Source: Nitrospirota bacterium (GTDB lineage: Bacteria > Nitrospirota > Thermodesulfovibrionia > Thermodesulfovibrionales > UBA9159). Taken from it: a stretch of 64,000 nucleotides of DNA. The DNA lies in contig CAVOUE010000006.1 in assembly GCA_963699545.1 (NCBI GenBank), positions 288,001-352,000 on the forward strand. The letters are read 5' to 3'. Positions 1-14,529 of this stretch are shown piece by piece (within the stretch, counting starts at the first letter, position 1; every line of letters begins with the position of its first letter). The position numbers and the translations under genes were made by a program. The notes under the pieces were generated by a model, which saw only the letters and a program-made list of their open reading frames with translations, was not told where the DNA came from and did no database searches.

Positions 1-36
1 AAGAAGCCTTAAGGGACCATGTTTTTTTTAAAGGAG

Positions 37-71
37 AGCAAAAGGGAGCGGCACCTTCGCTCCCTTTTGCT
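37..71. other. Perfect 14-bp stem-loop just upstream of ccoG
   Basis: AGCAAAAGGGAGCG-gcacctt-CGCTCCCTTTTGCT. Confidence 0.6.
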
Positions 72-1237
72 TGCCCCTTGTGTGGAAGAAATATAGAAGC
101 ATTGCCGCGATCATGCAGGCGCTCCTTATCCTTGGGCTGCCGTTTCTGAAGATAAACGGCCAGAGCGCCCTGAGATTTGACGTTCCGACGCTCAGACTCT
201 TTTTTTTCGGAAAGGTCATATGGATGCAGGAATTCTTTGTTGTGCTCCTCGCCCTCCTTACCCTCATGCTCCTGTTCATCTTCATCACCAACCTCCTGGG
301 AAGGGTCTGGTGCGGCTGGCTCTGCCCCCAGACAACCCTCCTCGATATAAGTCAGAGGTCCGGCCTGGTGAGGAGCAGGCTCAGCCTGATACTACCTCAT
401 ATCATTTTAGTCCCATTGTCCATGGTCGTCTCCGCATCACTGATCTGGTACTTCGTCTCTCCTTACGACTTTTTCCGGGTCATCTTCGGAGAAACGAAAA
501 GCCGAGTGGTCATCTGGTTCTTTATCATCATGTTTGCCATCGTCTATCTCGACCTGGAATTCCTCGGAAGGAAGTTCTGCAAGACCATCTGTCCCTATGC
601 AAAGCTCCAGTCAACCCTCTTCGACGGGAACACCCTTGTGGTGGAATTCGACACGGACCGCGCGGACAGATGCATGGGATGCGACAAATGCGTGGCGGTA
701 TGCCCGATCGGTATCGATATCAAAGACGGGCTTCAGATGGAATGTATCGCCTGCGCCCAATGCATTGATGCCTGCAGATCCATGACTGAACCAAGGGACA
801 TGAAGTCCCTCATCAGGTACACTTTCGGAGAGGGGAAAGTGATCCGGCCGAAAGCGGTCATCCTCTTTGCGCTCTCTCTTATTTCCTTTTTGTTCCTGCT
901 TTACAGGATCTCCTCTTTGCCTCCCTTTGAATTCGATGTGCTGCGGTCCGGAGAACTGTACCGCGTTACGGAAAAAGGTGAAATAATGAACATCTACGTG
1001 CTCAGCATAAAGAACATGAGTAACAGGGACATCGCCCTTGGCATAACCGTTGACAGACCTGATACAATTAAGGTAATCGGCCCGGCATCTGTATCGGCAA
1101 AGGCAGGTCAGATATACCATCAGAACATTGTTCTCCTCTCAGCAGGCCGGACGGCCAAGAGAGAGCCGGTTGTTTTTGCACTCAGGGATCCCGGGGGATA
1201 CGACCTAAAAAGACCAGGAACATTCTTCTCGCCATAA
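71..1237 (+). CDS. ccoG: CcoG/FixG family 4Fe-4S membrane protein (cbb3 oxidase accessory)
   Basis: GRVWCGWLCPQT, FCKTICPYAKLQ, two CxxCxxCxxxC ferredoxin motifs, TM helices, C-terminal Ig-like region; cco context. Confidence 0.88.
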   Translation: MPLVWKKYRSIAAIMQALLILGLPFLKINGQSALRFDVPTLRLFFFGKVIWMQEFFVVLLALLTLMLLFIFITNLLGRVWCGWLCPQTTLLDISQRSGLVRSRLSLILPHIILVPLSMVVSASLIWYFVSPYDFFRVIFGETKSRVVIWFFIIMFAIVYLDLEFLGRKFCKTICPYAKLQSTLFDGNTLVVEFDTDRADRCMGCDKCVAVCPIGIDIKDGLQMECIACAQCIDACRSMTEPRDMKSLIRYTFGEGKVIRPKAVILFALSLISFLFLLYRISSLPPFEFDVLRSGELYRVTEKGEIMNIYVLSIKNMSNRDIALGITVDRPDTIKVIGPASVSAKAGQIYHQNIVLLSAGRTAKREPVVFALRDPGGYDLKRPGTFFSP

Positions 1238-1249
1238 AGGAGGTGGGCA

Positions 1250-1390
1250 TTGAGCGGATGGGTTTATTTCGGTTTCACCGTAGCTCTTTTTGCGGTGCTC
1301 GTCGGGATCATCATCCATTACTACAACCCGAAAGAGAAAGAAAAGGTCGAAAAGCCGAAGTACAGGATATTTGACGAGGATGACAGATGA
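1250..1390 (+). CDS. Small CcoQ-like membrane protein (46 aa)
   Basis: Not in the ORF track. AAGGAGG RBS then TTG; translates MSGWVYFGFTVALFAVLVGIIIHYYNPKEKEKVEKPKYRIFDEDDR (one TM plus KYRIFDED tail). Confidence 0.75.
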   Translation: MSGWVYFGFTVALFAVLVGIIIHYYNPKEKEKVEKPKYRIFDEDDR

Positions 1391-1844
1391 GAAGAAACTT
1401 GCTCATGGTTCTGGTGTCTTTCATGGGGATGCTGCTGCTCGGCAATTCTACGGACGCTGAGGATCCCCTGACTGCGATCCGCTCAGAGGCAGTTGCATAA
1501 AAAAGATCGGGGACAAAGAGATCATCTTCGGCATTTCCCCTGCACCGGTGAAGGCCATGGAAGAGCTCGTTTTCCGTCTCGTTATCAGGCGAAGTCCCCC
1601 CTCGCCCCCTTTAATAAAGGGGGGGGAGGAGGGGATGAAAGAGCTGCCGGAAGAAATTGCCGTCGATCTCAGCATGCCCGGCATGTATATGGGGGAAAAT
1701 CGGGTTATGCTCAAAAGAAGTCCTGACGGGACTTACTCAGGGAAAGGAGTGATCCCAAAATGCCGGAGCGGCAGAAGGCTCTGGAAGGCGACAGTGACTG
1801 TCCCTGGCGCCGGAGCAGCCGGCTTTCTCTTCAATGTTTACTGA
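1387..1844 (+). CDS. FixH/YtkA-like exported protein (CcoH-like); apparent frameshift near 1460-1468
   Basis: Signal peptide from ATG 1387 joins the frame DCDPLRGSC...PVKAMEEL...DLSMPGMYMG...PKCRSGRRLWKATV; carries an in-frame palindromic insert. Confidence 0.65.
1595..1634 (+). repeat. In-frame palindromic element (PPSPPLIKGGEEG)
   Basis: CCCCCTTTAATAAAGGGGG hairpin; related copy in tatD. Confidence 0.75.
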
Positions 1845-2523
1845 TTCGATCTTTGTCATTATGTTCACGTCCGGCCTTCTGGGAGGCTTCGGACACTGTA
1901 TCGGCATGTGTGGTCCTGTCGTGACAGCGTATTCTGTGCAGCTGGAGAAGAGGAGCGTCCTCCCCCAGGTTCTGTATTCTCTCGGCAGAATAACAACCTA
2001 CAGTATCCTCGGGGGCATCGTGGGACTGGCCGGTTCCTTTGTCTCTGTCGTCAGGCACATTGAGAGATTCCAGGTCATCACCCTTGCTGTCACAGGGCTC
2101 GCGATGATCGCTTTCGGCCTTGCTGCAGGGGGCTGGCTGCCATTCCTCAGGAGGAAACTCGAAGGTGCGGAGCGGGTCTCCTTCTGGGTTGGGAAGACGC
2201 TCCGGTACATCTCGGAAGGAAAGACGGCCGGGGTTTTTTATCCCATGGGGCTTATCATGGGCTTTATCCCCTGCGGTTTGCTCTACACGGCGCTCATCGC
2301 AGCCGCAGGAGCGGGGGTCAGCGCGACCGAACATGTGGAAGGCTTCCTTCGGGGAGCGCTCCTCCTGTTCCTCTTCGGCCTCGGGACAGCGCCGGCATTG
2401 GTGCTTCTTGGGCAGATCGTCGCGATGAAAGGAGAGCGGATAAGAAACAGACTGCATAAGGCCTCGGCGCTCCTCATGATCCTTATAGGGGTCATGTTCA
2501 TTTACAGGTCATTCAGCCAGTGA
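1834..2523 (+). CDS. DsbD_2 / TauE-SafE-like membrane protein (cbb3 biogenesis)
   Basis: GHCIGMCGP, LGRITTYSILG, GFIPCGLLY, FGLGTAPAL motifs. Confidence 0.88.
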   Translation: MFTDSIFVIMFTSGLLGGFGHCIGMCGPVVTAYSVQLEKRSVLPQVLYSLGRITTYSILGGIVGLAGSFVSVVRHIERFQVITLAVTGLAMIAFGLAAGGWLPFLRRKLEGAERVSFWVGKTLRYISEGKTAGVFYPMGLIMGFIPCGLLYTALIAAAGAGVSATEHVEGFLRGALLLFLFGLGTAPALVLLGQIVAMKGERIRNRLHKASALLMILIGVMFIYRSFSQ

Positions 2524-4995
2524 GTGATCGGGTCATTCGCTCATGATGTGCAGGAAATGTGGTGTGATGCGATGAACATGCTGAAGTGTGACCATTGCCT
2601 TCTGCCGTTCCGCGAAAGGGATGCGCTCCGGGCTACAGTGGAAAGTGCGGAGAAGGTGTTTTGTTGCAACGGATGCAGGGGGATATACCGGCTCATCCAC
2701 TCCGAGGGACTTGATGAGTTTTATGAGAAGAGGTCGGGGTGGGTACCGGGCCCGCCTGAAGAGGTCGAGCTTGCGACGGATGCGTTCGAGGACTCGGTCA
2801 GAGTGTCAGCCGGCGAAGCAGAGATAGACCTTGCGCTCTCGGGAATCCGGTGCACCTCCTGCATATGGCTTATCGAGCGTTTTCTCGGGAAGATCAAGGG
2901 AATTACTTATATCACCGTGAATTATGCCACGCACATGGCAAAGGTCAGATGGCTTCCTGAAACGATATCCCTCGATTCGGTCCTCAGGAGAATCGCAGCA
3001 CTTGGCTATACGCCGCGCCCCTGGGCGGCATCAGACCTCGAAGAACGACTGAAGGCCGAAAAAAGGGACCTTCTCATTCGACTGGGCACCGCTTCTTTTC
3101 TGACGATGCAGCTCATGCTCTTCACTACCGCACTCTATGCGGGGTATTTCCAGGGCATTGACCCGCTCTACCGGAAGGTCTTTGAGCTCATCGCCCTTGG
3201 GCTCTCCACCCCGGTAATCTTTTACTGCGGTTATCCCTTTCTGAAGAATACCATCAGGGGGCTAAGGAACCGCTCGCTGAACATGGACACTCTTGTTTTT
3301 ACCGGATCGTTCAGCGCGTATTTGTACAGCATCATAGCTATGGTGAAAGGAGGAGGGGTCTATTTTGATACGTCGGCCATGATCGTGACCCTGATACTCC
3401 TCGGAAGGTTCATCGAATCAGGAGCGAGGGCAAAAGCAACAGGGGCTGTCTCCTCCCTTATCGGTCGACAACCGAAAGAAGCAAGACTTATAAAGAAGTC
3501 CCCGGGTGAAACGAAAGGGCTGCCTGTGAACATCTCCCTATCTGCACTCGGGATAGGCGATCATATCGAGGTCATCCCCGGAGAAAAAATTCCCGTCGAT
3601 TGTGTGGTAGTTCAAGGTTCTTCAGAGATCGATGCATCAATGCTCACAGGAGAATCCATGCCTGTCAGAAAGATGGAGGGTGCGGAGGTCTTTGGAGGGA
3701 CCCTTAACCTCAATGGGAGGCTTATCCTTGAGGTCAGAAGGACAGGGAACGATACGGTGCTGGCCCAGATAACAAGGGCCGTGGAAGATGCCCAGGCAAG
3801 GAAGGCCCCTATCCAAAAGGTCGTTGACAGGGTCGTCGGCTGGTTCGTGCCTGCTATCATCGCTCTATCAATGGCCACCTTCGTCCTCTGGTTTGTCAGA
3901 GGGAGTACTATGACATCCTCTTTAATGAACGCGATCTCGGTCCTCGTCATCGCATGTCCGTGTGCTCTGGGGCTGGCCACACCGTTGGCGATCCTCATAG
4001 GTTCAACGCTCCTTTCTTCCAGGGGTATCCTCGTCAAGGGAGGAGATATTATCGAGACCCTTGCCCGGTCGGATTTTGTATGCTTTGACAAAACAGGGAC
4101 ACTGACCGCGGGAACACCCTCCTTAGTGGAGATAGTGAGCTACGGAACGGACAGAGAGTATTTGCACGTCCTTGCAGCATCCCTCGAGAAAGGCTCGGAA
4201 CACGCCGTTGCAAAGGCTTTATGGACAGGTGTGAGTGAATCTGATCTCTATCCCATTGAGGCTTTCAAAGCATCCCCGGGGATGGGTGTAGAAGGGACCA
4301 TGGAGGCCGGGCATCTCGTTGCCGGGAATATCACTTTCCTGCGGTCATTCCATGTGGTGATCACTGAGGCACAGATGAGGGATCTCCATTGCCTTTCGGC
4401 AAAGGGCAACACCGTAGTGGGCCTCGCTGTTGCCCAGGAACTCAAAGGGTGGTTTGTGATCTCTGATGACCTCAGACCTGATGCGCCTGACGTTGTGAAG
4501 GATTTGGAACAGCAGGGATGCAAAGTGAGCCTTCTCACCGGGGACCATCGGGCTGTTGCCGAAAAGATAGGGGAAAAGGCGGGCATCTCGATGATCGATG
4601 CAGAGGTCTTGCCGGTTCAAAAGGCGGAGAAGATCAGGGAGATGAAGGAAGCCGGCCACAGGGTGACGATGGTGGGCGACGGCATCAACGATGCTCCCGC
4701 GCTCACGGAGGCTGATGCAGGAGTTGCCATTGGCAGTGCAACGGATATAGCAATTGAAAGTGCTGATGTCGTGCTGATGCGGAATGACCTGAATCTAGTT
4801 CCTCATCTCATCAGGGCGTCGAGAAGAATTCTCTCTGTCATAAAGCAGAACCTCTTCTGGGCATTCTCTTATAACCTCATCGCAATTCCCCTGGCAGTCG
4901 CCGGGATGATCCACCCCATTATCTCCGCAGCCTTCATGGCCACAAGTTCTCTCCTTGTGGTGGGGAACTCGCTCAGACTGTACAGGAAAAAGTGA
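2524..4995 (+). CDS. ccoI: Cu-type P1B ATPase, CcoI/FixI family (true start may be ATG 2572)
   Basis: CDHC and FCCNGC N-terminus, HMA CTSC, TGES, CPCALGLATP, DKTGTLT, GDGINDAPAL. Confidence 0.92.
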   Translation: MIGSFAHDVQEMWCDAMNMLKCDHCLLPFRERDALRATVESAEKVFCCNGCRGIYRLIHSEGLDEFYEKRSGWVPGPPEEVELATDAFEDSVRVSAGEAEIDLALSGIRCTSCIWLIERFLGKIKGITYITVNYATHMAKVRWLPETISLDSVLRRIAALGYTPRPWAASDLEERLKAEKRDLLIRLGTASFLTMQLMLFTTALYAGYFQGIDPLYRKVFELIALGLSTPVIFYCGYPFLKNTIRGLRNRSLNMDTLVFTGSFSAYLYSIIAMVKGGGVYFDTSAMIVTLILLGRFIESGARAKATGAVSSLIGRQPKEARLIKKSPGETKGLPVNISLSALGIGDHIEVIPGEKIPVDCVVVQGSSEIDASMLTGESMPVRKMEGAEVFGGTLNLNGRLILEVRRTGNDTVLAQITRAVEDAQARKAPIQKVVDRVVGWFVPAIIALSMATFVLWFVRGSTMTSSLMNAISVLVIACPCALGLATPLAILIGSTLLSSRGILVKGGDIIETLARSDFVCFDKTGTLTAGTPSLVEIVSYGTDREYLHVLAASLEKGSEHAVAKALWTGVSESDLYPIEAFKASPGMGVEGTMEAGHLVAGNITFLRSFHVVITEAQMRDLHCLSAKGNTVVGLAVAQELKGWFVISDDLRPDAPDVVKDLEQQGCKVSLLTGDHRAVAEKIGEKAGISMIDAEVLPVQKAEKIREMKEAGHRVTMVGDGINDAPALTEADAGVAIGSATDIAIESADVVLMRNDLNLVPHLIRASRRILSVIKQNLFWAFSYNLIAIPLAVAGMIHPIISAAFMATSSLLVVGNSLRLYRKK

Positions 4996-5035
4996 CCAGG
5001 GGCGCTTTGAGAAGTGGGGTGTCGCGTACACCGAC
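4463..5035 (+). repeat. 573-bp direct repeat, copy 1 (ccoI 3' end plus 40 bp)
   Basis: Ungapped match to 6949-7521, about 34 mismatches by manual count. Confidence 0.95.
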
Positions 5036-5087
5036 AGTCGACACTTTCAGAAAACCGAAACTAGTGAGGATTCCCGTAGATAATGTG

Positions 5088-5150
5088 CAGTAACGTGGAG
5101 CTAAGGGGCTGCGCGCTTTTGCGCAGTCCCGCTTGAGCGTAGGGTTAGGG
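5088..5150 (-). mobile_element. Integron attC site (cassette 1)
   Basis: Minus strand CCCTAAC-CCTAC-GCTCAAG-CGGGACTGCGCAAAAGCGCGCAGCCC-CTTAGC-TCCAC-GTTACTG: R''/L''/L'/R' layout with an extrahelical base. Confidence 0.88.
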
Positions 5151-5194
5151 GCGTACAAGCCAACCTGCTTTTGCGCAGACCCGAAGCTAAAAAC

Positions 5195-5788
5195 TCAGCA
5201 AGCACGATGATAACTTCCGGGGTTATTCGGTTTGCTCAATGTTCCGAATAGCGCGGCGTTCTGTTTATGGTAAGCGAATACTGCTCGGTCAATTTCCCTC
5301 AAGCTCCATTTCGGGTAACTGCCTCGTATCGCCAAAATAGCCTCCATGAATGATGGGTATTGATTGATACCAGTGGACTTATGCTGGATGTAGCCAAAAT
5401 GCCTAAGTACGTCTACAGTTCTACGGTCAATAATTGGGAAGAACGACGGATAAAGAAACTGGAGAAATGTTGATGCTACGGGTGCGCCGATACCAGGCAA
5501 CTCGACAAGCAGTTTCATCCTTTCCATACCAGAAGCCGCATGGCACTTTCTTATCGCGTTTGTGTATATCTCGAAATTGATCCAATCAATGCGCCCCTTA
5601 ACTCTGGCCGATTTCCAGTTCAGGATTTCAGTGAATGTCTGTTTTGTCACAGAGCCGTCGGCGCTCATCTCTAAGCTGACTCTGTTTAACAGCCTCTTGT
5701 ACTCTGACTCATCATCTTCAGTTTCATCGTACCGGGGATGCCAAGCCTGAATGAACTGGTCGTCAACTCTATTTGGCATGGCGCACAT
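5195..5788 (-). CDS. Cassette-borne helix-hairpin-helix protein, HhH-GPD glycosylase-like
   Basis: LVELPGIGAPVAS HhH motif followed by FPIIDRR; lower GC than flanks; lies between GTTAGGGGC and the attC. Confidence 0.65.
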   Translation of the reverse strand: MCAMPNRVDDQFIQAWHPRYDETEDDESEYKRLLNRVSLEMSADGSVTKQTFTEILNWKSARVKGRIDWINFEIYTNAIRKCHAASGMERMKLLVELPGIGAPVASTFLQFLYPSFFPIIDRRTVDVLRHFGYIQHKSTGINQYPSFMEAILAIRGSYPKWSLREIDRAVFAYHKQNAALFGTLSKPNNPGSYHRAC

Positions 5789-5826
5789 ATTTGCTTTCCT
5801 TTTTACCTGATAATTCCACGATAAGC

Positions 5827-5860
5827 CCCTAACCAGTTATTAGATAGTTTCTCGATAACA
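5827..5860 (-). mobile_element. attI-like site 1 (cassette 1 crossover GTT at 5833-5831)
   Basis: Minus strand ATCTAATAACTG-GTTAGGGGC, same CTAA-N6-GTT spacing as attI1; core complementary to GCCCCTAAC of attC1; no attC hairpin upstream. Confidence 0.6.
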
Positions 5861-6030
5861 CCGGAATTTTCCAGTCTCCGCAATCTGCCATAGACATCAC
5901 GCTCAGCGTAACTGCTTGATTTATCGTGCTATCATGATTGGATAACATTACTTTTGTGATGTTAGCGAGTTTTCTGTCTAACATATGAATGAGCATGTCA
6001 TGGGGTCAGGTCTTGTGTCTTGCATTTCAA

Positions 6031-6879
6031 CTATCTCCCCCTATTTACCACCCGACTTACAGTAGCATAATGTATCCCAAGATAATCAGCCACCTCTTTT
6101 TGGCTGTACCCGTACCTCTCGACTGACTCTTTGATAGCTTTCTCCGCTGACTCATTATCTGCTGTTTCTTGCTTCAATAATTTGGCAAGGCCAGGTCTTC
6201 CGATATATCTCTGACTCTTCGGTATTTCTTTTATTCGTTCCCGTCCCTTTGCGTATCCTATCAGGTTTTCGATAAATTCATCATCCCCTATAATGCTTTG
6301 TCCCTTCACCTCATTCCATATCTTCTTGGCGTCTATCCCTGCATCAACAAACTCACGGTATCTTTTCTCTGCCGGTCCCCTCTTCGAGCCAAACTGTCCC
6401 AGTATCCAGTCTTTTGTGAGGCAGGGATGAGGTTTTTCCATTCCCGCAGTTGCCCGGTAGCTGCTCCATTGCCACTTTTCAGGTCTTTTCACTGCCTTTG
6501 CCCTGACAGGATTCAATACTACATACCGGCTGACTTCAAGCAAATAGCTGTCTTTTTGTACCAGTATCGCCTTATATCTCCCTTGGAATATATGTCCCAC
6601 TCGATGATGCCTTCGGTTGAATTGTTGTGTATAGACTCCGTTGAGCTGCCTCATCCCTTTCGACAGGTTGCCGTCAGGAGTTTCGATGACGAGATGATAA
6701 TGGTTATTCATGAGGCAGTAGGCATGGCATAGCCAATTATATCGTTTATTTACTTTGTAAAGGGCTTCTATGAATACTTTTCGATCTTCATCGTCTTTGC
6801 AGATAGGTTTTCGGGCATTCCCACGCGAGGTTACATGATACAGCGCACCGTCGTATTCAATCCTTAATGGTCTTGCCAT
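6031..6879 (-). CDS. REP-associated tyrosine transposase (Y1_Tnp, HUH) with C-terminal HTH
   Basis: MARPLR..YHVTSRGN, AYCLMNNHYHL (HUH), GHIFQGRYKA, RYVVLNPVRA, WSSY; C-terminal SQKEVADYLGIHYATVSR. Confidence 0.9.
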   Translation of the reverse strand: MARPLRIEYDGALYHVTSRGNARKPICKDDEDRKVFIEALYKVNKRYNWLCHAYCLMNNHYHLVIETPDGNLSKGMRQLNGVYTQQFNRRHHRVGHIFQGRYKAILVQKDSYLLEVSRYVVLNPVRAKAVKRPEKWQWSSYRATAGMEKPHPCLTKDWILGQFGSKRGPAEKRYREFVDAGIDAKKIWNEVKGQSIIGDDEFIENLIGYAKGRERIKEIPKSQRYIGRPGLAKLLKQETADNESAEKAIKESVERYGYSQKEVADYLGIHYATVSRVVNRGR

Positions 6880-6885
6880 ATCAGC

Positions 6886-6914
6886 ATCCTATCAGAAAAA
6901 GCCGCCAATTGCAA
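6886..6914 (-). promoter_or_regulatory. Putative sigma70 promoter of the RAYT gene; -35 overlaps the inner end of the inverted repeat
   Basis: TTGCAA-N17-TAGGAT on the minus strand. Confidence 0.5.
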
Positions 6915-6948
6915 GAAACAAGACCTGACCCCAATGACCGTCGTTGAA

Positions 6949-7521
6949 CTGATGACCTCAGACCTGATGCGCCTGACGTTGTGAAGGATTTGGAACAGCA
7001 GGGATGCAAAGTGAGCCTTCTCACCGGGGACCATCGGGCTGTTGCCGAAAAGATAGGGAAACGAGCGGGTATTTCGATAATCGATGCAGAGGTCTTGCCG
7101 GTTCAGAAGGCGAAGAAGATCAGGGAACTCAAAGAATCAGGCCACAGGGTGACGATGGTGGGCGACGGCATCAACGATGCTCCCGCGCTCACGGAGGCTG
7201 ATGCAGGAGTTGCCATCGGCAGTGCAACGGATATAGCAATTGAAAGTGCCGATGTCGTGCTGATGCGGAATGACCTGAGTCTAGTTCCTCATCTCATCAG
7301 GACATCAAGAAGAATACTCTCTGTCATAAAGCAGAACCTCTTCTGGGCATTCTCTTATAACCTCATCGCCATTCCCCTGGCAGTCGCCGGGATGATCCAT
7401 CCCATCATCTCGGCGGCCTTCATGGCCACAAGTTCTCTCCTTGTGGTGGGAAACTCGCTCAGGCTCTACAGGAAAAAGTAACCAGGGTCGCCTTGAGAAG
7501 TGGGGTGTCGCTTACACCGAC
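6949..7521 (+). pseudogene. ccoI: Duplicated 3' fragment of ccoI (repeat copy 2; ORF 6981-7481)
   Basis: Begins mid-gene with no N-terminus or phosphorylation motif; about 94% identical to 4463-5035. Confidence 0.92.
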
Positions 7522-7563
7522 GACTCCTCAAGGTCAAGGAAGGTCGAGGACTAAAGATTTACG

Positions 7564-7632
7564 GTAGAACGCTCGGGCTGACAGGTGCGCGGGCGCTTTT
7601 TCCGCGCATCCTCGTCCAGCCCGTTGTTAGGC
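7564..7632 (-). mobile_element. Integron attC site (cassette 2)
   Basis: Minus strand GCCTAAC-AACGGGCTGGAC...GCGCGG-AAAAAGCGC-CCGCGC...GTCAGCCCG-AGC-GTTCTAC; imperfect hairpin with an extra base. Confidence 0.85.
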
Positions 7633-7661
7633 CGTAATGCAGAAATGTTCTCTTGGTAATA

Positions 7662-8288
7662 CTACGCACGCACAAGGACATTAGCCATTGCATAATCGGA
7701 CAACTGAAGTAATGGCTTTCCAAAGTTACCACCAATGATCTCAAACAGGGGATAATTTGGAGCATCGAGTGCCTTTCCAATCCATTTCCCGAATCGCTCA
7801 AGTTCACTCCCGCGTTCTTTCACGAGTGCAGCCCGATATTCCTCCAAACGATTGAGCGGATCAAGGTGATCCCCGAACCCAAATGTTGGCTTCGGATCAA
7901 TTGACACAAGCGTTATTTCACGAAGATTCTTCATTCCGGCATTACGACAAAGTTCCATGAGTGCTGTGGCTAATGCGCCATCAAATAGTCCAATAAGCCT
8001 CTGGCTTGGTCGTTTACCAAACCATTTCTTTTCTGTAAGGTGTTTTGGTGACTGCAAGCTGGCAAAGAATGTGCAAAAACACAAGCACTCGAAACGCAGC
8101 CTGAGGCGCATTTCGTCAGTGATAGGCTTTTCCGATATATTGAGTCTACGAGCTTCATCACCACGACAGAATTGAGTGTATGTCTCCAAGATGGATTCGA
8201 CGATTTTTTGGTCAAGCAGGAAATGGTCAATGCCCACAAGAACATTTACAGCAAGACGATCTAATGTTTCTATCGAGGGCAATGACAT
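7662..8288 (-). CDS. Cassette-borne hypothetical protein (208 aa)
   Basis: Low-GC ORF filling the space between GTTAGGC (8317-8311) and attC2. Confidence 0.7.
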   Translation of the reverse strand: MSLPSIETLDRLAVNVLVGIDHFLLDQKIVESILETYTQFCRGDEARRLNISEKPITDEMRLRLRFECLCFCTFFASLQSPKHLTEKKWFGKRPSQRLIGLFDGALATALMELCRNAGMKNLREITLVSIDPKPTFGFGDHLDPLNRLEEYRAALVKERGSELERFGKWIGKALDAPNYPLFEIIGGNFGKPLLQLSDYAMANVLVRA

Positions 8289-8310
8289 ATATTTATTCCC
8301 TTTGTTGTTG

Positions 8311-8340
8311 GCCTAACATTGTTTTTTATGCCGACTATTC
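8311..8340 (-). mobile_element. attI-like site 2
   Basis: Minus strand GTCGGCATAAAAAACAAT-GTTAGGC resembles attI1 GTCGCCCTAAAACAAA-GTTRRRY; core complementary to GCCTAAC of attC2. Confidence 0.65.
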
Positions 8341-8351
8341 AGTTTTTGTGA

Positions 8352-8380
8352 ATTATAGGATTAGTCCGGGCTACTGTCAA
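8352..8380 (-). promoter_or_regulatory. Consensus sigma70 promoter (Pc-like) facing cassette 2
   Basis: Perfect TTGACA-N17-TATAAT on the minus strand. Confidence 0.85.
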
Positions 8381-8633
8381 TATAATTATTCCCCCCCGCG
8401 TAAGAACTGGACGGATAACAAAGGATAATTACTGCGATTGTAATAGTTATAACGCGTCCACATAATAAAGACCTAATTTTATCTTTACTATTATACGGAG
8501 GTTCTCACAGAGAATAAAAAAATATGTCCAGTGTTGATTTTCGAGAGTACTTGATTATCCCACCTTGCTCTCAGCGGTGTCGGTTCCAGGAAGGACTTCT
8601 TTTCCGATCAAGGAACATTTCCCAGGCAAAAAA

Positions 8634-8894
8634 TTATCGGTAGATATCCTTTCGATGGCGCACTTTGAGGATCGTTATCATTTCCTCTGGAATATCTACT
8701 ACATACATAATTCGATAATCCCCGAAACGGTATCGAAATAAACCGGCCAGATTTTCCTTGAGAGGCTTTCCGAGCTTAAGCGGATCCTGGACCAGATATC
8801 TTGTTATGCGGTGGATGACCTTCAGTGCGAGCTCTTTGTCCAGGTCCCGGAGGTCCTTCCAGACATCCTCGTGCCATCGAACCTTATAGGCCAA
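8634..8894 (-). CDS. RelE/ParE family toxin
   Basis: YKVRW...GKPLKENLAGLFRYRFGDYRIMY...VRHRKDIY. Confidence 0.9.
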   Translation of the reverse strand: MAYKVRWHEDVWKDLRDLDKELALKVIHRITRYLVQDPLKLGKPLKENLAGLFRYRFGDYRIMYVVDIPEEMITILKVRHRKDIYR

Positions 8895-9093
8895 GCCGCT
8901 TTTCCAGTTCCTTTGTGTTCAGATATTTTGCGTTCTTATCGTTCAGCCGATCGAGAGCAAGATACGCATCTTCGTATTCTTCAAGGTACTCACTAAGCGC
9001 CTCCCTCATATAGTAGCTTTTCGGCCTCCTGGTCTTTTCTGAGAGCCTATTAAGCCTGCTCTCTAAATCAACAGGCAGTTTCAGGGTTAACAT
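8884..9093 (-). CDS. RHH (RelB/CopG-like) antitoxin
   Basis: LTLKLP..LESRLNRLSEKTRRPKSYYMREAL; overlaps toxin start; GGAGG RBS. Confidence 0.88.
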   Translation of the reverse strand: MLTLKLPVDLESRLNRLSEKTRRPKSYYMREALSEYLEEYEDAYLALDRLNDKNAKYLNTKELEKRLGL

Positions 9094-9114
9094 GACACCT
9101 CCTACTTATGTATT

Positions 9115-9138
9115 ACTGTTATTACCTATAATAACAGT
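9115..9138. promoter_or_regulatory. Probable TA autoregulatory operator
   Basis: ACTGTTATTA-ccta-TAATAACAGT perfect inverted repeat upstream of the antitoxin. Confidence 0.6.
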
Positions 9139-9273
9139 TGAACAGAAGAAAGTCCACAGGGGCCTACTTGCATGGCAAGAAGAAGCTATTCATGTAAACT
9201 TACTAATCCGCACCCTTCGTGACTTCCACTCGAAGCTAGACTTCAGGAAGAACATACTACAATTTCAGAACGT

Positions 9274-10005
9274 TTACGAACCTGAACGCAGAGATTCCTG
9301 GCCATCCCTCCAGCGTATCCACTTCAGTGAACTTCTGCGGATGAGTTCAGGCCATATCTGTGAAGGTTCCTTTTCGAAGATGGTCTCTGCATCTGCGTTC
9401 ATGACATGCCAGCCTCCCAGGGCCACCTCCCGGTCCAGCTGCCGGGGCGACCATCCTGCATAGCCTGCAAATACATGGAATCCCCTTCCGCTCTCTCCCT
9501 TGTCGACCATCCGCCGAAGGAGCTTCGCGCTTCCGCTGACATAGATATCCTTAAACACGTGGCCGGAATCTTCGGGCTTTTGAGCAGATCGAACGAGCAT
9601 GAGCATCTGATCGGTCCTGACCGGACCTCCGAAGTAGAGGGGGTCCATCCGCTTCTTCAGTCCCTCCATATCCGGAAACGCCCTTGACAGCCTGGCATCA
9701 GAAGGACGATTGATCACCAGCCCGACGGCGCCCTGGTCGCTATATTCCACCAGGAATATAACTGTCTCCAGGAACCTCGGGTCCTTCATTTCCCTCCCCG
9801 CAACAAGAAACTTCCCTCTGGAGAGGTTCGCATCCGGCTCGGGGAGAAAAGGCGAAACAGGCTCGACAGGTATTCTGGCCGCAAGAAGCCTGGTATCGCC
9901 GGGAAGAACTGGCCCGGCTGTCATCGCAAGAAGTGTGATGAGAAGTGTCGCGGTCAGCAGGAAGACAGCAGGACAAGAAAAGACCGGGTGTTCCGATTTG
10001 TTCAT
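9274..10005 (-). CDS. YqgE/AlgH (DUF179) family protein with N-terminal signal-like segment
   Basis: GKFLVA..MKDPRF.ETV, GAVGLVINRP, YFGGPV, FAGYAGWSPRQLDREV..GGW. Confidence 0.88.
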   Translation of the reverse strand: MNKSEHPVFSCPAVFLLTATLLITLLAMTAGPVLPGDTRLLAARIPVEPVSPFLPEPDANLSRGKFLVAGREMKDPRFLETVIFLVEYSDQGAVGLVINRPSDARLSRAFPDMEGLKKRMDPLYFGGPVRTDQMLMLVRSAQKPEDSGHVFKDIYVSGSAKLLRRMVDKGESGRGFHVFAGYAGWSPRQLDREVALGGWHVMNADAETIFEKEPSQIWPELIRRSSLKWIRWRDGQESLRSGS

Positions 10006-10327
10006 TTGATGGCGCTTTCAGTGGACATTCTCACAGGAGTACCGTGACGAAATAAAAGAAGGTGGCTCTCGCTTTTTTCTTCTTTGCCCGTTATCTCTCC
10101 GAGACTAATCGTCTCACGACTGAATTTCTTACAGCTCATGCCGCACGAGATACGGAACAAAGAGAGCAAGACCACCACCTTTACCGCCTCTCTTCTTGAT
10201 TTCAGCGTACTCCTTTTCATGGTGGCTGTCAAGCATTAATTTCGATCCCGGTGAGTGAGGGGATGAGCACAATGAGCACAAGATGACAGGTGCACTAACC
10301 GCCGAAAAGAGTATAATGAGATCAGCC

Positions 10328-10480
10328 ATGTGGACAATCTTTCTCCTCATCGTTCTCACCGTGGTATTCGGGATAGCGGCATGGCTCTTCTTCCTGTGGG
10401 CGGTGAAGAGCGGCCAGTACGATGACCCCGAGAGGCCGAAGCACCGGATGCTGGATGACGAAGACAGCGGAAAGAAGTAA
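10328..10480 (+). CDS. ccoS: cbb3 oxidase assembly protein CcoS
   Basis: FFLWAVKSGQYDDPE signature. Confidence 0.9.
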   Translation: MWTIFLLIVLTVVFGIAAWLFFLWAVKSGQYDDPERPKHRMLDDEDSGKK

Positions 10481-10527
10481 GCCGTTCATTGAAAAAAAAG
10501 CCTCTGTGCTTTAAACTAAATCTCACC

Positions 10528-11736
10528 ATGCAGAAACTGATAACGCCGCTGATACAGAAAAATAATTCAAGGATCGTCCTTGTTGTACTGGATGGGTTGG
10601 GCGGTCTTCCTCTGAACGGCAGGACGGAGCTCGAGACTGCCAGGACGCCGAATCTCGATGCCCTTGCAGCCCGTTCAGCATGCGGACTCCATGTCCCTGT
10701 GGCCTACGGGATAACGCCGGGAAGCGGTCCGGGACACCTCGGCCTCTTCGGATACGACCCCGTGGAATGCCGGATCGGAAGAGGGGTGCTGGAGGCCCTT
10801 GGTCTCGGCCTTGAGGTGAAAAGAACGGATATTGCGGTAAGGGGTAACTACGCCTCCATGAGAGATGGAGTGATCACCGACAGGAGAGCGGGGAGGATCC
10901 CGACGGAGCAGAGCAAGAGACTCACCGAAAAACTCCAGAGGGAAATACCACGAATTGACGATGCGGAGTTCATCTTTGCCCCTGGCATGGAGCACAGGTT
11001 TGCTGTGGTGATGAGGTTCCCTCAGCCCCTCACACCGGAAGCAGCAATGATCAGCGATACCGATCCCCAGAAAGAGGGAAAGCCTCCGCTCGATGCACTG
11101 GCCCTCTCCAGGGATGCAGAGGCAGCGGCAGGGGTTGCCTGCCGTTTCGTGGGTGAGGCGCAGAAGGTGCTGAGAAACGAGGCCAAGGCAAATCACCTCT
11201 TGCTGAGGGGGTTTTCAGGCATGCCCCATGTCCCGACCTTCGAAGAGGCCTTTGGACTCAACGCCGTTGCCATCGCTACGTATCCCATGTACAGGGGTCT
11301 TGCAAAGATCGTGGGGATGGATACGCCTGCCCTTGAGGGAAGCGTTGAAGATGAAATACGGTTCCTGAAAAAGAACTTCGGCGAATATGACTTTTTCTTC
11401 CTGCACGTAAAAAAGGTTGACTCCTATGGCGAAGACGGCAATTTCCCGGGGAAGGCTGCGCGGATCGAGGAATTTGATGCACTCCTGCCGGAGATACTCT
11501 CCTTGAACCCTGACGTCCTGGTCATCACCGGGGACCATTCGACCCCTTCAGTCATGAAGGGCCACAGCTGGCACCCTGTGCCCCTGCTCCTGAGTTCCCC
11601 CTACGTCCTCGGGGGGTTATGCGCCTCGTTCTCGGAGAGGGAATGCGTGCGGGGCGAACTGGGCATCTTCCCTGCCGTGAACATCCTCCCCCTTGCCCTC
11701 GCCAATGCAGGAAGACTGAAAAAGTTCGGCGCATGA
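10528..11736 (+). CDS. apgM: 2,3-BPG-independent phosphoglycerate mutase, archaeal type
   Basis: VLDGLGG, TPNLD, PGSGPGHLGLFGYDP, GRGVLEALG, TGDHSTP. Confidence 0.92.
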   Translation: MQKLITPLIQKNNSRIVLVVLDGLGGLPLNGRTELETARTPNLDALAARSACGLHVPVAYGITPGSGPGHLGLFGYDPVECRIGRGVLEALGLGLEVKRTDIAVRGNYASMRDGVITDRRAGRIPTEQSKRLTEKLQREIPRIDDAEFIFAPGMEHRFAVVMRFPQPLTPEAAMISDTDPQKEGKPPLDALALSRDAEAAAGVACRFVGEAQKVLRNEAKANHLLLRGFSGMPHVPTFEEAFGLNAVAIATYPMYRGLAKIVGMDTPALEGSVEDEIRFLKKNFGEYDFFFLHVKKVDSYGEDGNFPGKAARIEEFDALLPEILSLNPDVLVITGDHSTPSVMKGHSWHPVPLLLSSPYVLGGLCASFSERECVRGELGIFPAVNILPLALANAGRLKKFGA

Positions 11737-13181
11737 TCGATACCCACTGTCATCTCGATATGTTCCCCTGCGATGCTGAACCTTCAGAAAAAGGAGCTGG
11801 ATTGACGGGAGACGGCAGGGAGGCTGTCATCCGCAGGGCATCAGAGGCGGGTCTCGAAGCCATCATAACGATAGGGTCTGACTTTCAGAGCAATCTTACC
11901 AATAATGCGATCACAGATGAGTATGAAATGGTATACGCTTCAGTCGGTATCCATCCTCACGATGCGAAAGATTTTACTGACGATGTGTACAAGCAGTTGA
12001 AAGAATGGGCAACGCCACGGATCACGCCTTCACCCCCCCATCCCCCCCTTATCAAGGGGGGGCAACGGGGGGGTAAGATTGTCGCAATCGGAGAGACCGG
12101 CCTGGATTACTATTATAATCATTCGCCCCGGGATACACAGAGGGAGGTCTTCAGAAAGCACCTTGAACTTGCGGGAAAGACCGGGCTTCCCGCCGTTATC
12201 CACAGCCGTGACGCAAAGGAGGATACGCTGGAGATATTGGGGGAATCAGGCATCGCAAAAGGAGTTCTGCACTGTTTCTCCGGGGACATGGATATGGCGG
12301 AGAGGGTCATGGAGATGGGACTCTACATTTCCTTTGCCGGGCCCGTCACCTTTAAGAACGCAGGAAAACTCTCCGAGATAGCGAAGGAAATACCCGACGA
12401 CTACCTTCTCATCGAGACGGACGCCCCCTACCTTGCGCCTGAGCCGATGAGAGGGAGAAGAAATGAGCCGTCCTATATCATTCACACGGTGAAGCGTCTC
12501 GCTGAGTTAAGGGGAGTGAGCGGGGAGGATATCGTGAGAATCACGACCCTCAATGCTCGCAGGCTCTTCGGGATAGGCGGGCTGCCTTCGCAAGGGGAGA
12601 TCGCATACAGGATCAGGGACAGCCTCTATCTGAATATCACGAACCGGTGCACGAACAGATGCTCCTTCTGTGTGAGATTCCATTCCGATTATGTCAAGGG
12701 ACATAACCTCAGGCTTCCTGAGGAACCGACGGAAGAAGTATTAAAAAGAGCTATCGGCGATCCGACCCGCTATCGGGAGGTCGTGTTCTGCGGATACGGC
12801 GAACCCCTCCTGAGGCTTGAAACCGTCAGGAATCTTTCCCGATGGATAAAGGAAATGGGTGGCTTCGTACGGATCAACACGAACGGTCACGGGAACCTGA
12901 TCCACGGACGGAACATCCTTCCGGAACTCGAGGGTATCGTGGATTCCGTCTCTGTGAGTCTCGATGCCCATGATGAGGAGTCATATAACAGGATCTGTGC
13001 TCCGGCATTCGAGAACGCATTCCGGGAAGTCGTTTCATTCATCAGGGACGCGAAGGCATGTATCCCCCACGTTCAGGCCACCGTGGTAGAAGTGGAAGGT
13101 GTGGATCTGGAGAGATGCAGAAAGATAACGGACGAGCTGGGAGTGACGCTCAGGGTACGGAAGCTGGATGTTGTTGGGTAG
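11733..13181 (+). CDS. tatD: TatD hydrolase fused to TatD-associated radical SAM domain
   Basis: DTHCHL, GIHPH, IGETGLDY, HSRDA, HCFSG, ETDAPYL; then YLNITNRCTNRCSFC, FCGYGEP, RINTNG. Confidence 0.9.
   Translation: MIDTHCHLDMFPCDAEPSEKGAGLTGDGREAVIRRASEAGLEAIITIGSDFQSNLTNNAITDEYEMVYASVGIHPHDAKDFTDDVYKQLKEWATPRITPSPPHPPLIKGGQRGGKIVAIGETGLDYYYNHSPRDTQREVFRKHLELAGKTGLPAVIHSRDAKEDTLEILGESGIAKGVLHCFSGDMDMAERVMEMGLYISFAGPVTFKNAGKLSEIAKEIPDDYLLIETDAPYLAPEPMRGRRNEPSYIIHTVKRLAELRGVSGEDIVRITTLNARRLFGIGGLPSQGEIAYRIRDSLYLNITNRCTNRCSFCVRFHSDYVKGHNLRLPEEPTEEVLKRAIGDPTRYREVVFCGYGEPLLRLETVRNLSRWIKEMGGFVRINTNGHGNLIHGRNILPELEGIVDSVSVSLDAHDEESYNRICAPAFENAFREVVSFIRDAKACIPHVQATVVEVEGVDLERCRKITDELGVTLRVRKLDVVG
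12030..12073 (+). repeat. In-frame palindromic element (SPPHPPLIKGGQRGG)
   Basis: CCCCCCCTTATCAAGGGGGGG hairpin; related to 1595-1634. Confidence 0.75.
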
Positions 13182-13254
13182 CCCGCCGCGGGATGGTCAG
13201 CGTATCCTGTTCATCCATAAGAACGGCCTTGCTCATTCCTCTCGTCCCGGACAG

Positions 13255-14529
13255 TCACATGCCACGCAATGCAGAGGAAAGAAACTCTTCTATCCCCGCG
13301 ATATCAACCTCTCCCTGGGAGCCGTCCCTGAGATTTTTCCATTTCACCCTGCCCGAAGAGAGTTCATCATCACCAAGAATCAGGACATAACGGGATGACA
13401 GCCTGTCCGCCTTGCGGAGCTGACTCCTCAGGGAAGACCCGTCATAGCCGGCCTCGGCGCATATCCCCCTTGCCCGCAATCTCCCGGCCATAAGAAAGGA
13501 CTCTCTTGTCGCCTTTTCACCTATGGGGGCGATATAGACATCGGGAAATGCCTCTGCGACACCCTCCTTGTCCCTGATGAGCGTCGTCAGCCTCTCCATT
13601 CCAATGGCGAACCCGATGCCGGGAGTGGGAGGTCCGCCGAATTCCTCCACCAGTTTGTCGTATCTCCCACCGGCAGCCACCGCCTTCTGCGCTCCAAGGT
13701 GTTCACTGGTGACCTCAAAGGTGGTCCTCATGTAGTAATCGAGACCCCTCACCATGTCGGGATTCAGCACGTAGGGAATATTGAAACGGGTGAGCGAAGA
13801 AAGGACCTCATCGAAGTGGACCCTGCAGTCGCCGCAGAGAAAGCCGGTCACACGGGGCGCTCCCTTCCGGACTTCAATACACCGTTCCACCTTGCAATCC
13901 AGTATCCGCAAGGGATTTTGCTCGTATCTCCTTTTGCAATCCGGGCAGAGGTCACCAAGTCTTGACGAGAAAAAAACCTGCAAGGCGTTCCTGTAGGCCG
14001 GCCTGCACTTCTCACAGCCGATGGAGTTTACCTCAAAGCTCACCCCTTTCAGTCCCAGCCTCTCCAGAAGGACCTTGAGCATCACGATAACCTCTGCATC
14101 GAGAAGGGGAGAAGCCATACCGAATGCCTCGACGCCTATCTGGTGGAACTGCCGGAACCGTCCCTTCTGCGGCCTCTCATACCTGAACATCGGACCGGAA
14201 TAGAAGAACCTCTGGGGAGCAGGGAGGTTGTAAAGATGGTGCTCTACATAAGCCCTCACCACAGAAGCGGTCCCTTCGGGCCTCAGGGTAATGCTCCTGC
14301 CCGCCTTGTCAGGGAAGGTGTACATCTCCTTCTCGACGATATCGGTTGTCTCCCCGATGCTTCTGGTAAAGAGGGTCGTGGGCTCTATGATCGGGGGCCT
14401 GATCTCCTGAAATCCATAGAGGGCGAAGACATCACGGGCTGCCGCTTCAACCTTCTGCCACAGGGAACTATCAGGGGGAAGGATGTCCTGGACGCCTTTG
14501 AGGGCACTGAACCGGGGGGAAGAACTCAC
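13255..14529 (-). CDS. hisS: Histidyl-tRNA synthetase
   Basis: LRPEGTA, FRYERPQKGRFRQFHQ, RGLDYY, GGRYD. Confidence 0.97.
   Translation of the reverse strand: MSSSPRFSALKGVQDILPPDSSLWQKVEAAARDVFALYGFQEIRPPIIEPTTLFTRSIGETTDIVEKEMYTFPDKAGRSITLRPEGTASVVRAYVEHHLYNLPAPQRFFYSGPMFRYERPQKGRFRQFHQIGVEAFGMASPLLDAEVIVMLKVLLERLGLKGVSFEVNSIGCEKCRPAYRNALQVFFSSRLGDLCPDCKRRYEQNPLRILDCKVERCIEVRKGAPRVTGFLCGDCRVHFDEVLSSLTRFNIPYVLNPDMVRGLDYYMRTTFEVTSEHLGAQKAVAAGGRYDKLVEEFGGPPTPGIGFAIGMERLTTLIRDKEGVAEAFPDVYIAPIGEKATRESFLMAGRLRARGICAEAGYDGSSLRSQLRKADRLSSRYVLILGDDELSSGRVKWKNLRDGSQGEVDIAGIEEFLSSALRGM

Follow-up and report, generated by a model that had tools for sequence, protein, structure and literature searches.

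In a 64,000-nucleotide (nt) stretch of a Nitrospirota genome (Thermodesulfovibrionales, UBA9159; GenBank assembly GCA_963699545.1, contig CAVOUE010000006.1, positions 288,001 to 352,000; hereafter the window), two integron modules that lack an integrase stand behind ccoI, a gene for cbb3-oxidase maturation. We read them as two integrase-less heads in series on the minus strand, each made up of an attI site, one promoterless cassette with its attC site, and a short tail ending in GTCGGTG. Probably they are satellite docks, that is, attI sites with a Pc-type promoter, loaded by an integrase that acted in trans or has since been lost; their tandem order would have arisen by the joining of two alleles. 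The loading would be the ordinary integron reaction, in which a folded attC strand recombines with attI and the crossover falls at G|TT. Heads 1 and 2 belong to two families of orphan docks spread over many genomes of the order. The integrase would be encoded elsewhere: a complete integron in the 13% of the genome that is not assembled, a mobile element, or a resident integron that has decayed could be its source. On contig C12, an intI stub of 50 codons survives with an attI of its own.

The assembly that holds the window comprises 3.04 Mb in 13 contigs, and is estimated to be 87% complete and 5% contaminated. Below, C-numbers denote contigs of this genome (the window is part of C6), G-numbers genomes of relatives and L-numbers sequence loci. 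Integron integrases (intI) were called with the TIGR02249 profile at a cut-off of 265 bits.

Two modules of the same order

Read from right to left on the minus strand, each module runs head, open reading frame (ORF), GC-rich hairpin and a tail of ~55 nt. An element with a RAYT transposase gene and flanking inverted repeats (IRs) separates module 1 from module 2. Every element mapped by a first-pass annotation of the DNA lies at the place given there, or a few bases from it. The parts of the two modules are as follows (aa, amino acids).

5029..5093, minus strand: tail 1, the right-hand piece of the type-1 platform, past the attC crossover G (5094) to GTCGGTG (5029-5035); from a shuffle test
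5088..5150, minus strand: attC 1, with R'' CCCTAAC, spacer CCTAC, L'' GCTCAAGC, L' CTTAGC and R' GTTACTG; from fold and covariance model
5094..5831, minus strand: cassette 1, 738 nt, from TTAGGGGC to the G of R', with an ORF of 197 aa at 5195-5788; no Pfam family
5832..5983, minus strand: head 1, a putative type-1 attI platform, only its 3' 152 nt with the promoter part gone, ending ...GAAACTATCTAATAACTGG|TT; from the copies in the same genome
7515..7569, minus strand: tail 2, from the attC 2 crossover G (7570) to GTCGGTG (7515-7521); read from the sequence
7564..7632, minus strand: attC 2, with R'' GCCTAAC and R' GTTCTAC; from fold (z -3.8) and covariance model
7570..8316, minus strand: cassette 2, 747 nt, with an ORF of 208 aa at 7662-8288; no Pfam, NCBIfam or PADLOC family
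8317..8492, minus strand: head 2, a putative type-2 attI platform, with the Pc-type promoter TTGACA-17-TATAAT (8380..8352) and the core GGCATAAAAAACAATG|TT; from the promoter match (12/12) and alignments

attC sites and cassettes

Both GC-rich hairpins are attC sites. They fold as imperfect hairpins in which AAC pairs with GTT and a central spacer stays unpaired; in each, three extrahelical bases stand singly on the 5' arm of the coding strand, and the 3' arm is free of them. The bracket pattern of attC 1 is identical to that of the attC in a cassette beside intI in the relative G019. We built a covariance model from 14 sites, two from other contigs of the same genome and 12 from eight relatives, both window sites being left out. 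Over the 64-kb window at E≤1 it returned solely attC 2 (38.5 bits, E 5e-8) and attC 1 (36.3 bits, E 2e-7). The inverse core sites RYYYAAC/GTTRRRY are present in both, the R'' of attC 1 starting with C instead of R; R' need not fit RRRY, since the bases past G|TT come from the target.

The start of cassette 1 is exactly complementary to its own R'' over 9 nt (GTTAGGGGC/GCCCCTAAC, that is, G|TTAGGGGC against GCCCCTAAC), and that of cassette 2 over 8 nt (GTTAGGCC/GGCCTAAC, that is, G|TTAGGCC against GGCCTAAC, with R'' GGCCTAA). These stretches open each cassette ~30-45 nt ahead of the start codon. Such complementarity between a cassette start and its own R'' is the mark of a circular cassette that was opened at G|TT. 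With the canonical fold, the independent covariance model and the R''-matching starts, the proposal of the first-pass annotation that the hairpins are real attC sites is borne out.

Neither cassette protein matches a Pfam or PADLOC family. Weak HhH/OGG-like leads, for cassette 1, are all that emerged: an NCBIfam N-glycosylase model at E 0.007, far under its cut-off, and a language-model neighbour of whose members 18% are annotated as OGG-like.

Past its attC, tail 1 is significantly like the tails that follow the attC sites of C11, C5 and G003 (the observed score was reached by 0-1 of 300 shuffles); the similarity of tail 2 to these type-1 tails is not significant in the shuffle test. GTCGGTG ends the tails at C11 and C5 as well as both tails of the window. 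The two modules had initially been described as unrelated in sequence: this stands for tail 2, which has no significant similarity to the tail-1 family, and falls with the GTCGGTG in which both tails end.

Hand-written attC heuristics proved too loose or too strict, and missed the C11 and C5 sites. The one based on extrahelical bases was passed by three sites genome-wide, of which two are attC 1 and attC 2. An AAC...GTT hairpin at 34734-34829 of the window, flagged by the heuristic, has no covariance-model match and is probably due to chance. Further attC sites of this genome, at 32-55 bits, lie at C12:7126-7214 and C12:8031-8115 (0.9 kb apart), C10:159066-159157, C9:91163-91252 and C4:148945-149071.

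Two classes of attI platform

Head 1 belongs to a family. Three further copies of its 152 nt, 88-95% identical, lie on C11, C5 and C3, and a diverged core on C7 is the fifth type-1 copy in the genome. Outside the window the type-1 copies form a platform of ~285 nt that ends ...GAAACTATCTAATAACTGG|TT and whose promoter, TTGAC-N18-TATAA, is kept at C11, C5 and C3. Homology among the copies of this genome (n=4) ends exactly at G|TT, beyond which the ORFs are unrelated; 22 copies in relatives are likewise unrelated past GTT. Strong attC sites close the cassettes at C11 (77 bits) and C5 (76.9 bits), and in both the R'' fits the bases that follow G|TT. Four of the 22 relatives' copies have an attC with an R'' matching over 8 nt, inside the 1.5 kb compared. 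Since the tails of module 1, C11, C5 and G003 are significantly alike, the empty platform would consist of a left and a right piece that meet at the crossover.

The type-1 platform was matched in 37 of 251 genomes sampled from the order. The exact 21-mer core of head 1 occurs in 27 genome records, assigned to Nitrospirota/Nitrospirae or Thermodesulfovibrionales except for three labelled otherwise. A complete divergent intI stands ~128 nt from this 21-mer in L116 (384 bits) and L120 (381 bits). Next to it, L109 has a partial intI, and L104 and L119 have intI stubs of ~40 codons. There is no intI at 20 of the 25 core loci with enough upstream sequence. All 24 attC matches in the 27 records are on the core strand, and one or more attC sites occur downstream of the core at 15 of the 27 loci. 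G019 has, beside intI, a variant core with a verified cassette after it, and in G052 a type-1 core lies at a contig end upstream of intI. The platform of our genome has only its last 28-30 nt in common with the intI-adjacent form; further upstream, at least three platform classes differ. A tblastn search of the relatives' platform loci found no intI within 1.5 kb, except for a fragment of 35 aa at the L081 edge; the other match is a Xer-like gene ~3 kb from the dock at the C5 locus of our genome.

The core of head 2 runs ...AACAATG|TT downstream of a perfect promoter, from which the head is predicted to be able to express cassette 2. Head 2, taken as the 175 nt ahead of cassette 2, aligns with a second copy in the same genome, C6:401.6k (hereafter C6b; score 56, shuffle maximum 34), and with a region of G042 that lies ~445 nt upstream of a divergent intI (score 64, shuffle maximum 44). 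C6b in turn aligns with G051 (score 166, maximum 50) and with G042 (score 91, maximum 37). The integrases of G051 and G042 score 419 and 414 bits, respectively, and are of a ~425-aa clade; those of L116 and L120 are of a ~485-aa clade. The cassette after the type-2 site of G042 starts with bases that fit the R'' of its own attC. That after C6b ends in a 50.4-bit attC, and its R'' (GTGCAAC) agrees with G|TTGCAC. A third core at C5:23180 brings type 2 to three copies in this genome.

The calling of both heads as attI is thus supported. Each stands at the 5' boundary of its first cassette, and conservation ends at G|TT, as in the other copies of this genome and the 22 copies of relatives. A Pc promoter points into the cassettes in head 2 (12/12) and in the type-1 copies on C11, C5 and C3; head 1 lacks it. 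A divergent intI alongside is missing from the window and from the assembly. It is found beside homologous sites: L116, L120, G019 and G052 for type 1, and G042 and G051 for type 2. The sites that the first-pass annotation had called attI-like can accordingly be named attI homologues, head 2 by its alignment with the intI-proximal Pc/attI regions of G042 and G051, head 1 by the position of its core near the intI of L116 and L120.

Two candidate features of the type-1 platform were rejected. A frame of ~51-55 codons for a small protein is present in the copies of this genome and in G003, and is broken in most of 25 sequences. A conserved hairpin (CTCGATAAC / GTTATCGAG), read by eye, is changed on one side without compensation in G003.

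Directly after many type-1 cores and some cassettes, we observed short GC-rich units of the form G|TTCCC...GGGAA(C/T)...CAGTCAAGACGG...CCGCTTACCG. They occur at L079, L081, L093, L094, L098, L111-L113, L115, L116 and L119, and in our genome at C3 ~423.3-423.5k, C7:16.1k and C9:91.25k. They look like ORF-less mini-cassettes with a divergent type of attC; their covariance scores are weak (16-31 bits).

Distribution of docks and integrases

The genome holds at least eight orphan docks, five of which have a strong attC, and a ninth with an intI stub. The latter, at C12:68066-68366 (L142 ~2066-2366), has a 50-codon N-terminal stub, which over 38 aa shares 50% identity with the G052 IntI. A promoter-like TATACT and the core CTTAATAACATTG|TTAGG lie ~130 nt upstream of the stub, followed by a signal-peptide ORF.

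No intact intI is found in the 3.04-Mb assembly: the best match to TIGR02249, at 70.8 bits, is well under the cut-off. The search of the window and of the whole assembly confirms what had been noted from the window, that it contains no intI; nor does an intI stand next to the array, as it would in a complete integron. Of 61 genomes searched, 14 have an integrase over the cut-off, both same-genus genomes among them; so do 4 of the 12 platform-bearing genomes (among G001-G060). The 99%-complete genome G003 carries a loaded dock; at E≤1e-40 it gave no match to intI.

The type-1 loci have no common neighbouring genes between genomes. When 18 neighbour or cassette proteins were compared with 29 platform loci of relatives, nothing matched except one 22-aa RAYT fragment. 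The first-pass annotation had proposed a route specific to the ccoI locus. This is not supported, given the presence of the same platforms at seven other places in the genome, and the 37 genomes in which type 1 recurs with no shared neighbours. Cassette capture in this genome is probably not tied to a single integron locus.

In the cassette region of the C3 dock (L063 5295-6871), a SLATT-domain protein (NCBIfam SLATT_4 3e-33; PADLOC 2TM effector 2e-19) is followed by a HAD-type hydrolase; by their domains, the pair appears defence-like.

Proposed loading in trans and the points that weigh on it

Docks served in trans, an idea already present in the first-pass annotation, are the best-fitting reading: the attC sites are genuine, the heads are homologous to attI, and intI is missing. 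The anatomy of the modules, the identity of the attC sites, the homology of the heads to attI, their number and spread, and the lack of intI are established; the action of an integrase in trans, any present-day activity of the docks, and the way in which the platforms spread are what we infer.

Several observations weigh against this reading. The likeness of head 2 to intI-adjacent sites is modest, resting mainly on ~70 nt of promoter and core, and its alignment with the equivalent G051 region is marginal (score 44, shuffle maximum 39). Head 1 is without its promoter part. The docks on C3, C7 and at C5:23180 have weak attC-like matches only (12-20 bits), whose place and strand are those expected, and the covariance model finds no attC within 7.6 kb of the C12 stub dock. 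The attC model was built in this analysis and is not that of IntegronFinder. Two metagenome scans with exact 27-nt and 41-nt patterns of the ccoI-downstream junction gave 0 matches each. This genome shows no source of integrase, and its docks may be frozen. Finally, the type-1 modules share the ~285-nt left platform and the ~55-nt right tail with sharp ends, a pattern that agrees equally well with the spread of entire, already loaded modules and with loading in place.

Head 1 could be read only by read-through from the co-oriented upstream RAYT gene.

A wider version of the satellite-dock reading, put forward tentatively, is that of a distributed integron. Small, self-contained Pc-attI docks, their left and right ends defined, would spread as units to many places on the chromosome and across families of the order, would persist where intI was lost or never present, and would be loaded with single cassettes by any compatible passing integrase; two dock classes would be matched to two integrase clades, and RAYT would help split heads from integrases and shuffle docks between alleles.

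Origin of the tandem layout

The modules lie in DNA that repeats the end of ccoI.

2524..4995, plus strand: ccoI, cbb3-oxidase maturation P-type ATPase, 823 aa, intact; Pfam E1-E2_ATPase, Hydrolase, ATPase-cat_bd and HMA
4463..5035, plus strand: repeat copy A, the last 533 nt of ccoI and 40 nt downstream, ending in TACACCGAC; 573 nt, 94% identical to 6949-7521
6949..7521, plus strand: repeat copy B, the truncated ccoI 3' end and 40 nt, ending in TACACCGAC; 166-aa open frame at 6981-7481
9274..10005, minus strand: algH-like gene (DUF179), the native convergent neighbour of ccoI; Pfam

Both copies close with TACACCGAC (5027-5035 and 7513-7521), where their likeness ends. The modules thus begin after the same nucleotide downstream of ccoI, as had been seen at first pass: both 573-nt copies end at this sequence.

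The ccoI loci of four relatives were read. In three of them ccoI is directly followed by a convergent algH-like gene (called by eye from the sequence), at a distance of ~30, 200 and 700 nt in G013, G001 and G012, respectively; G007 has another neighbour. No integron is seen at these loci. Since ccoI directly adjoins the algH-like gene in relatives, the 4.2 kb between ccoI and algH in the window are inserted DNA.

The two ccoI 3' ends are 94% identical, and the nearest other species in our genome set reaches at most 72% in ccoI. The second end would therefore come from a close strain or a sister lineage with a type-2 dock at the same point. The tandem layout then results from recombination between two alleles or from an assembly chimera, and is best explained as an allele join. 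Two diverged alleles of the ccoI locus, one with a type-1 dock and the other with a type-2 dock, would have been joined by recombination through the RAYT element or beside it. The observed order is exactly what a crossover between two RAYT copies would give, if one stood beside the type-1 dock and the second was inserted in ccoI, at position 4463, in the other allele. It would also follow from an illegitimate, one-ended join when foreign DNA was taken up.

In the chimera, a strain with a type-1 dock next to RAYT would have been joined in silico to a strain with RAYT in ccoI upstream of a type-2 dock; an assembler that passed through the RAYT element common to both would arrive at the order seen. 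We think this unlikely, while taking it seriously: the assembly is of metagenome type with an estimated 5% contamination, the doubtful joint lies directly alongside a mobile element of ~930 nt, and a 6% difference between the ccoI ends, far closer than any other species, is what co-existing strains would show. However, the chimera needs a strain with a disrupted ccoI, the assembly has just 13 contigs and contains the RAYT element once, and a real recombination between two RAYT copies yields the same structure. A chimera would also leave the existence of either dock unaffected: with an allele join or a chimera alike, the site holds a dock of one class in one allele and of the other class in the other.

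Possible decay in place

Instead of being loaded in trans, each dock could be the remnant of a separate complete integron after deletion of intI. In its favour are the intI stubs of ~40-50 codons beside the same core at C12:68.1-68.2k, L104 and L119, the intI of G012, cut to its C-terminal ~135 aa at 26 nt from a RAYT element, and the lack of an intact intI in our genome. Yet at the ccoI locus, relatives show no integron in any state of decay, with ccoI directly followed by the algH-like gene in three of four loci. By tblastn, there is no intI remnant at the eight docks of our genome. Moreover, the type-1 copies are 88-95% identical and have a defined left end with a promoter and no intI start; given so uniform a platform, decay would need many independent integrons of one class, each losing its intI cleanly. 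We regard decay in place as improbable, and retain loading in trans.

The RAYT element

Between the modules lies a discrete element.

6001..6933, minus strand: insertion sequence-like RAYT element with 27-nt terminal IRs (6001-6027 and 6907-6933; 93% complementary); Pfam Y1_Tnp and NCBIfam
6031-6879, minus strand: RAYT gene, 282 aa, Y1 transposase with a C-terminal helix-turn-helix; Pfam Y1_Tnp 5e-14

The protein passes the NCBIfam model REP_Tyr_transpos (NF047646) with 93 bits against a cut-off of 80, and its translation contains what we take to be the H-Y-H and Y-x-x-x-N-P motifs. The element is single-copy in its genome, which has a 31%-identical paralogue on C3. Orthologues in relatives retain the same terminal repeats, which marks it as a discrete insertion element of ~0.93 kb. 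Amplification of repetitive extragenic palindromic (REP) sequences is not seen: the flanking IRs are present, and the 14-mer GGGGTCAGGTCTTG of the repeat occurs just three times in the 3.04 Mb, the third copy near no attC match.

The first-pass annotation had raised the possibility that the Y1 (HUH) transposase moves single-stranded attI-cassette units to a hotspot. RAYT-family matches do occur in 6 of the 27 core-bearing loci. Five closer homologues (L100, L101, L106, L119 and L120) are on the core strand, as in the window; that of L109 is 28% identical and on the opposite strand. Conversely, attC or intI features occur within 1.5 kb in 4 of 19 RAYT loci of relatives. At E≤1e-20, there are 4 matches in 185 kb of dock loci and 84 in 61 whole genomes; RAYT would then be enriched around docks, by a rough estimate since loci and genomes are related. 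A RAYT-type repeat also abuts the upstream edge of the platform in two places: in the window, where the platform is without its promoter part, and in L103, where a solo repeat stands where intI would start.

Nevertheless, seven of the eight orphan docks of our genome are without RAYT, and a RAYT fragment is found at just 1 of 29 platform loci of the order. Among close orthologues (at least 60% identity) only 1 of 9 lies by an integron feature. The 14-mer GGGGTCAGGTCTTG, with its few copies and the position of the third, lends capture no support either. No target or junction sequence is common to the four RAYT elements compared, and neither the RAYT element nor the module ends show target-site duplications or shared target motifs. 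In G012 (C80; L124 1022-2373), a 67%-identical RAYT orthologue is the one that lies 26 nt from the truncated intI, which speaks for disruption and not delivery. Capture by RAYT is therefore very unlikely. We read these elements as recurrent disruptors, truncating neighbours and portable homology, not as carriers.

In the complete integron of L120, the DNA right after the attI core (2811-3200) reads as a RAYT-type C-terminus (...VEKAEDYQW...), and an intact IR-flanked RAYT element lies 400 nt past this stretch.

Comparison with known integron forms

Single attC sites and attC clusters that have no integron integrase (SALIN and CALIN, respectively) are found as often as complete integrons; whether they arise by decay, rearrangement or off-target insertion is debated. 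The two attC sites of the window lie 2.4 kb apart without intI and so constitute a CALIN by definition, and other copies in the genome are SALIN-like. As in these forms, genuine cassettes with attC have no intI nearby; the difference is that the window cassettes sit behind conserved promoter-bearing sites, homologous to the intI-adjacent attI of relatives.

In the text available to us, Cury et al. 2016 (PMC4889954) report that an intI pseudogene is absent from the vicinity of 95% of CALIN. For most integrons, they state, attI is not known and so could not be sought; only exact matching was used, for classes 1-3. SALINs have been put down to insertion at sites unlike att sites (Loot et al., 10.1101/2022.09.11.507474, in the portion accessible). 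In the accessible portions of both sources, such elements are otherwise explained by intI loss, rearrangement or unrelated attG sites (PMC4889954; 10.1101/2022.09.11.507474).

Secondary-site insertion of free cassettes at chance GNT/GWT (attG) sites, where the upstream sequence would be irrelevant, is documented together with SALIN and CALIN (10.1101/2022.09.11.507474; PMC4889954, in the portions accessible), and single cassettes without a nearby integrase fit the SALIN definition; we give it hardly any credence here, since an attI homologue directly precedes each window cassette, the insertion points are nonrandom, with conserved cores of 20-30 nt identical or near-identical to the intI-adjacent sites of relatives, and these cores recur eight times in the genome, each with a different cassette starting exactly at G|TT.

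Like sedentary chromosomal integrons, the satellite docks have a Pc-type promoter, the attI crossover G|TT, a promoterless cassette in the expressed orientation, attC, and toxin-antitoxin neighbours. They differ in having no intI and in forming several heads per genome, at unrelated housekeeping loci and mostly with one cassette each; the type-1 family adds a conserved left sequence of ~285 nt and a conserved tail of ~55 nt.

A further parallel is delta-attI, the attI remnants within cassettes of mobile integrons, along with attI x attI recombination in such integrons (PMC12901181, in the portion accessible). Both are attI-derived sequences off the intI-adjacent position, and delta-attI sites are, in the same portion of that source, still substrates of IntI. 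The delta-attI remnants it describes lie 3' of cassettes in class 1/2 arrays, whereas the heads described here lie upstream, outside any integron.

As for the RAYT element, it resembles RAYT and IS200-like genes in that its 282-aa protein passes the RAYT model, is flanked by IRs and has orthologues that retain these repeats. It differs in that the repeat is not amplified: it behaves as a single-copy insertion sequence of ~0.93 kb, not as a domesticated gene that maintains REP sequences.

The literature searched, in the portions accessible, holds no description of dispersed, promoter-bearing attI heads without integrase. As attI is unknown for most integron classes, one could not ask before whether isolated cassettes are seated at a real attI. 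Here attI can be identified by homology to the intI-adjacent sites of relatives, and isolated cassettes appear to sit at attI heads. These promoter-bearing heads recur many times per genome and across the order, mostly without an integrase. This suggests that integron-finding software undercounts functional capture sites. A testable model follows, in which one integrase serves many expression-ready docks; two matched integrase/attI pairs are available for it. If the distributed integron is true, a large part of unexplained CALIN and SALIN would be cassettes at true attI and not attG accidents.

Neighbouring genes and other observations

To the right of module 2 lie a relBE-type pair, algH, and then ccoS.

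8634..9156, minus strand: RelE/ParE toxin (8634-8894), RHH antitoxin (8884-9093) and promoter region; Pfam ParE_toxin, RHH_3 and RHH_1

The pair at 8634-9093 has the features of a type II toxin-antitoxin system (ParE_toxin 5e-12, RHH_3 4.5e-8, 11-nt gene overlap), and the unit has an 84%-identical paralogue of 524 nt at C13:9450-9973. Toxin-antitoxin genes adjoin three docks: this relBE pair, an RHH-RelE pair directly past the C5 tail (L062 3329-3851), and a HicB-like gene, called by eye, past the attC of C6:402k (C6 ~402.39k). Toxin-antitoxin pairs stabilise cassette arrays, and the pairs beside these docks fit that role.

An Rfam scan of window positions 1-14000 and three platform loci returned no family at E≤0.1 except two tRNAs elsewhere. 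Finally, the peptide PPLIKGG occurs in a P/G-rich stretch of two unrelated ORFs (1548-1844 and 11619-13181), at ~1600-1640 and ~12050-12090 of the window, which suggests a short repeated DNA element that was put in frame inside genes.

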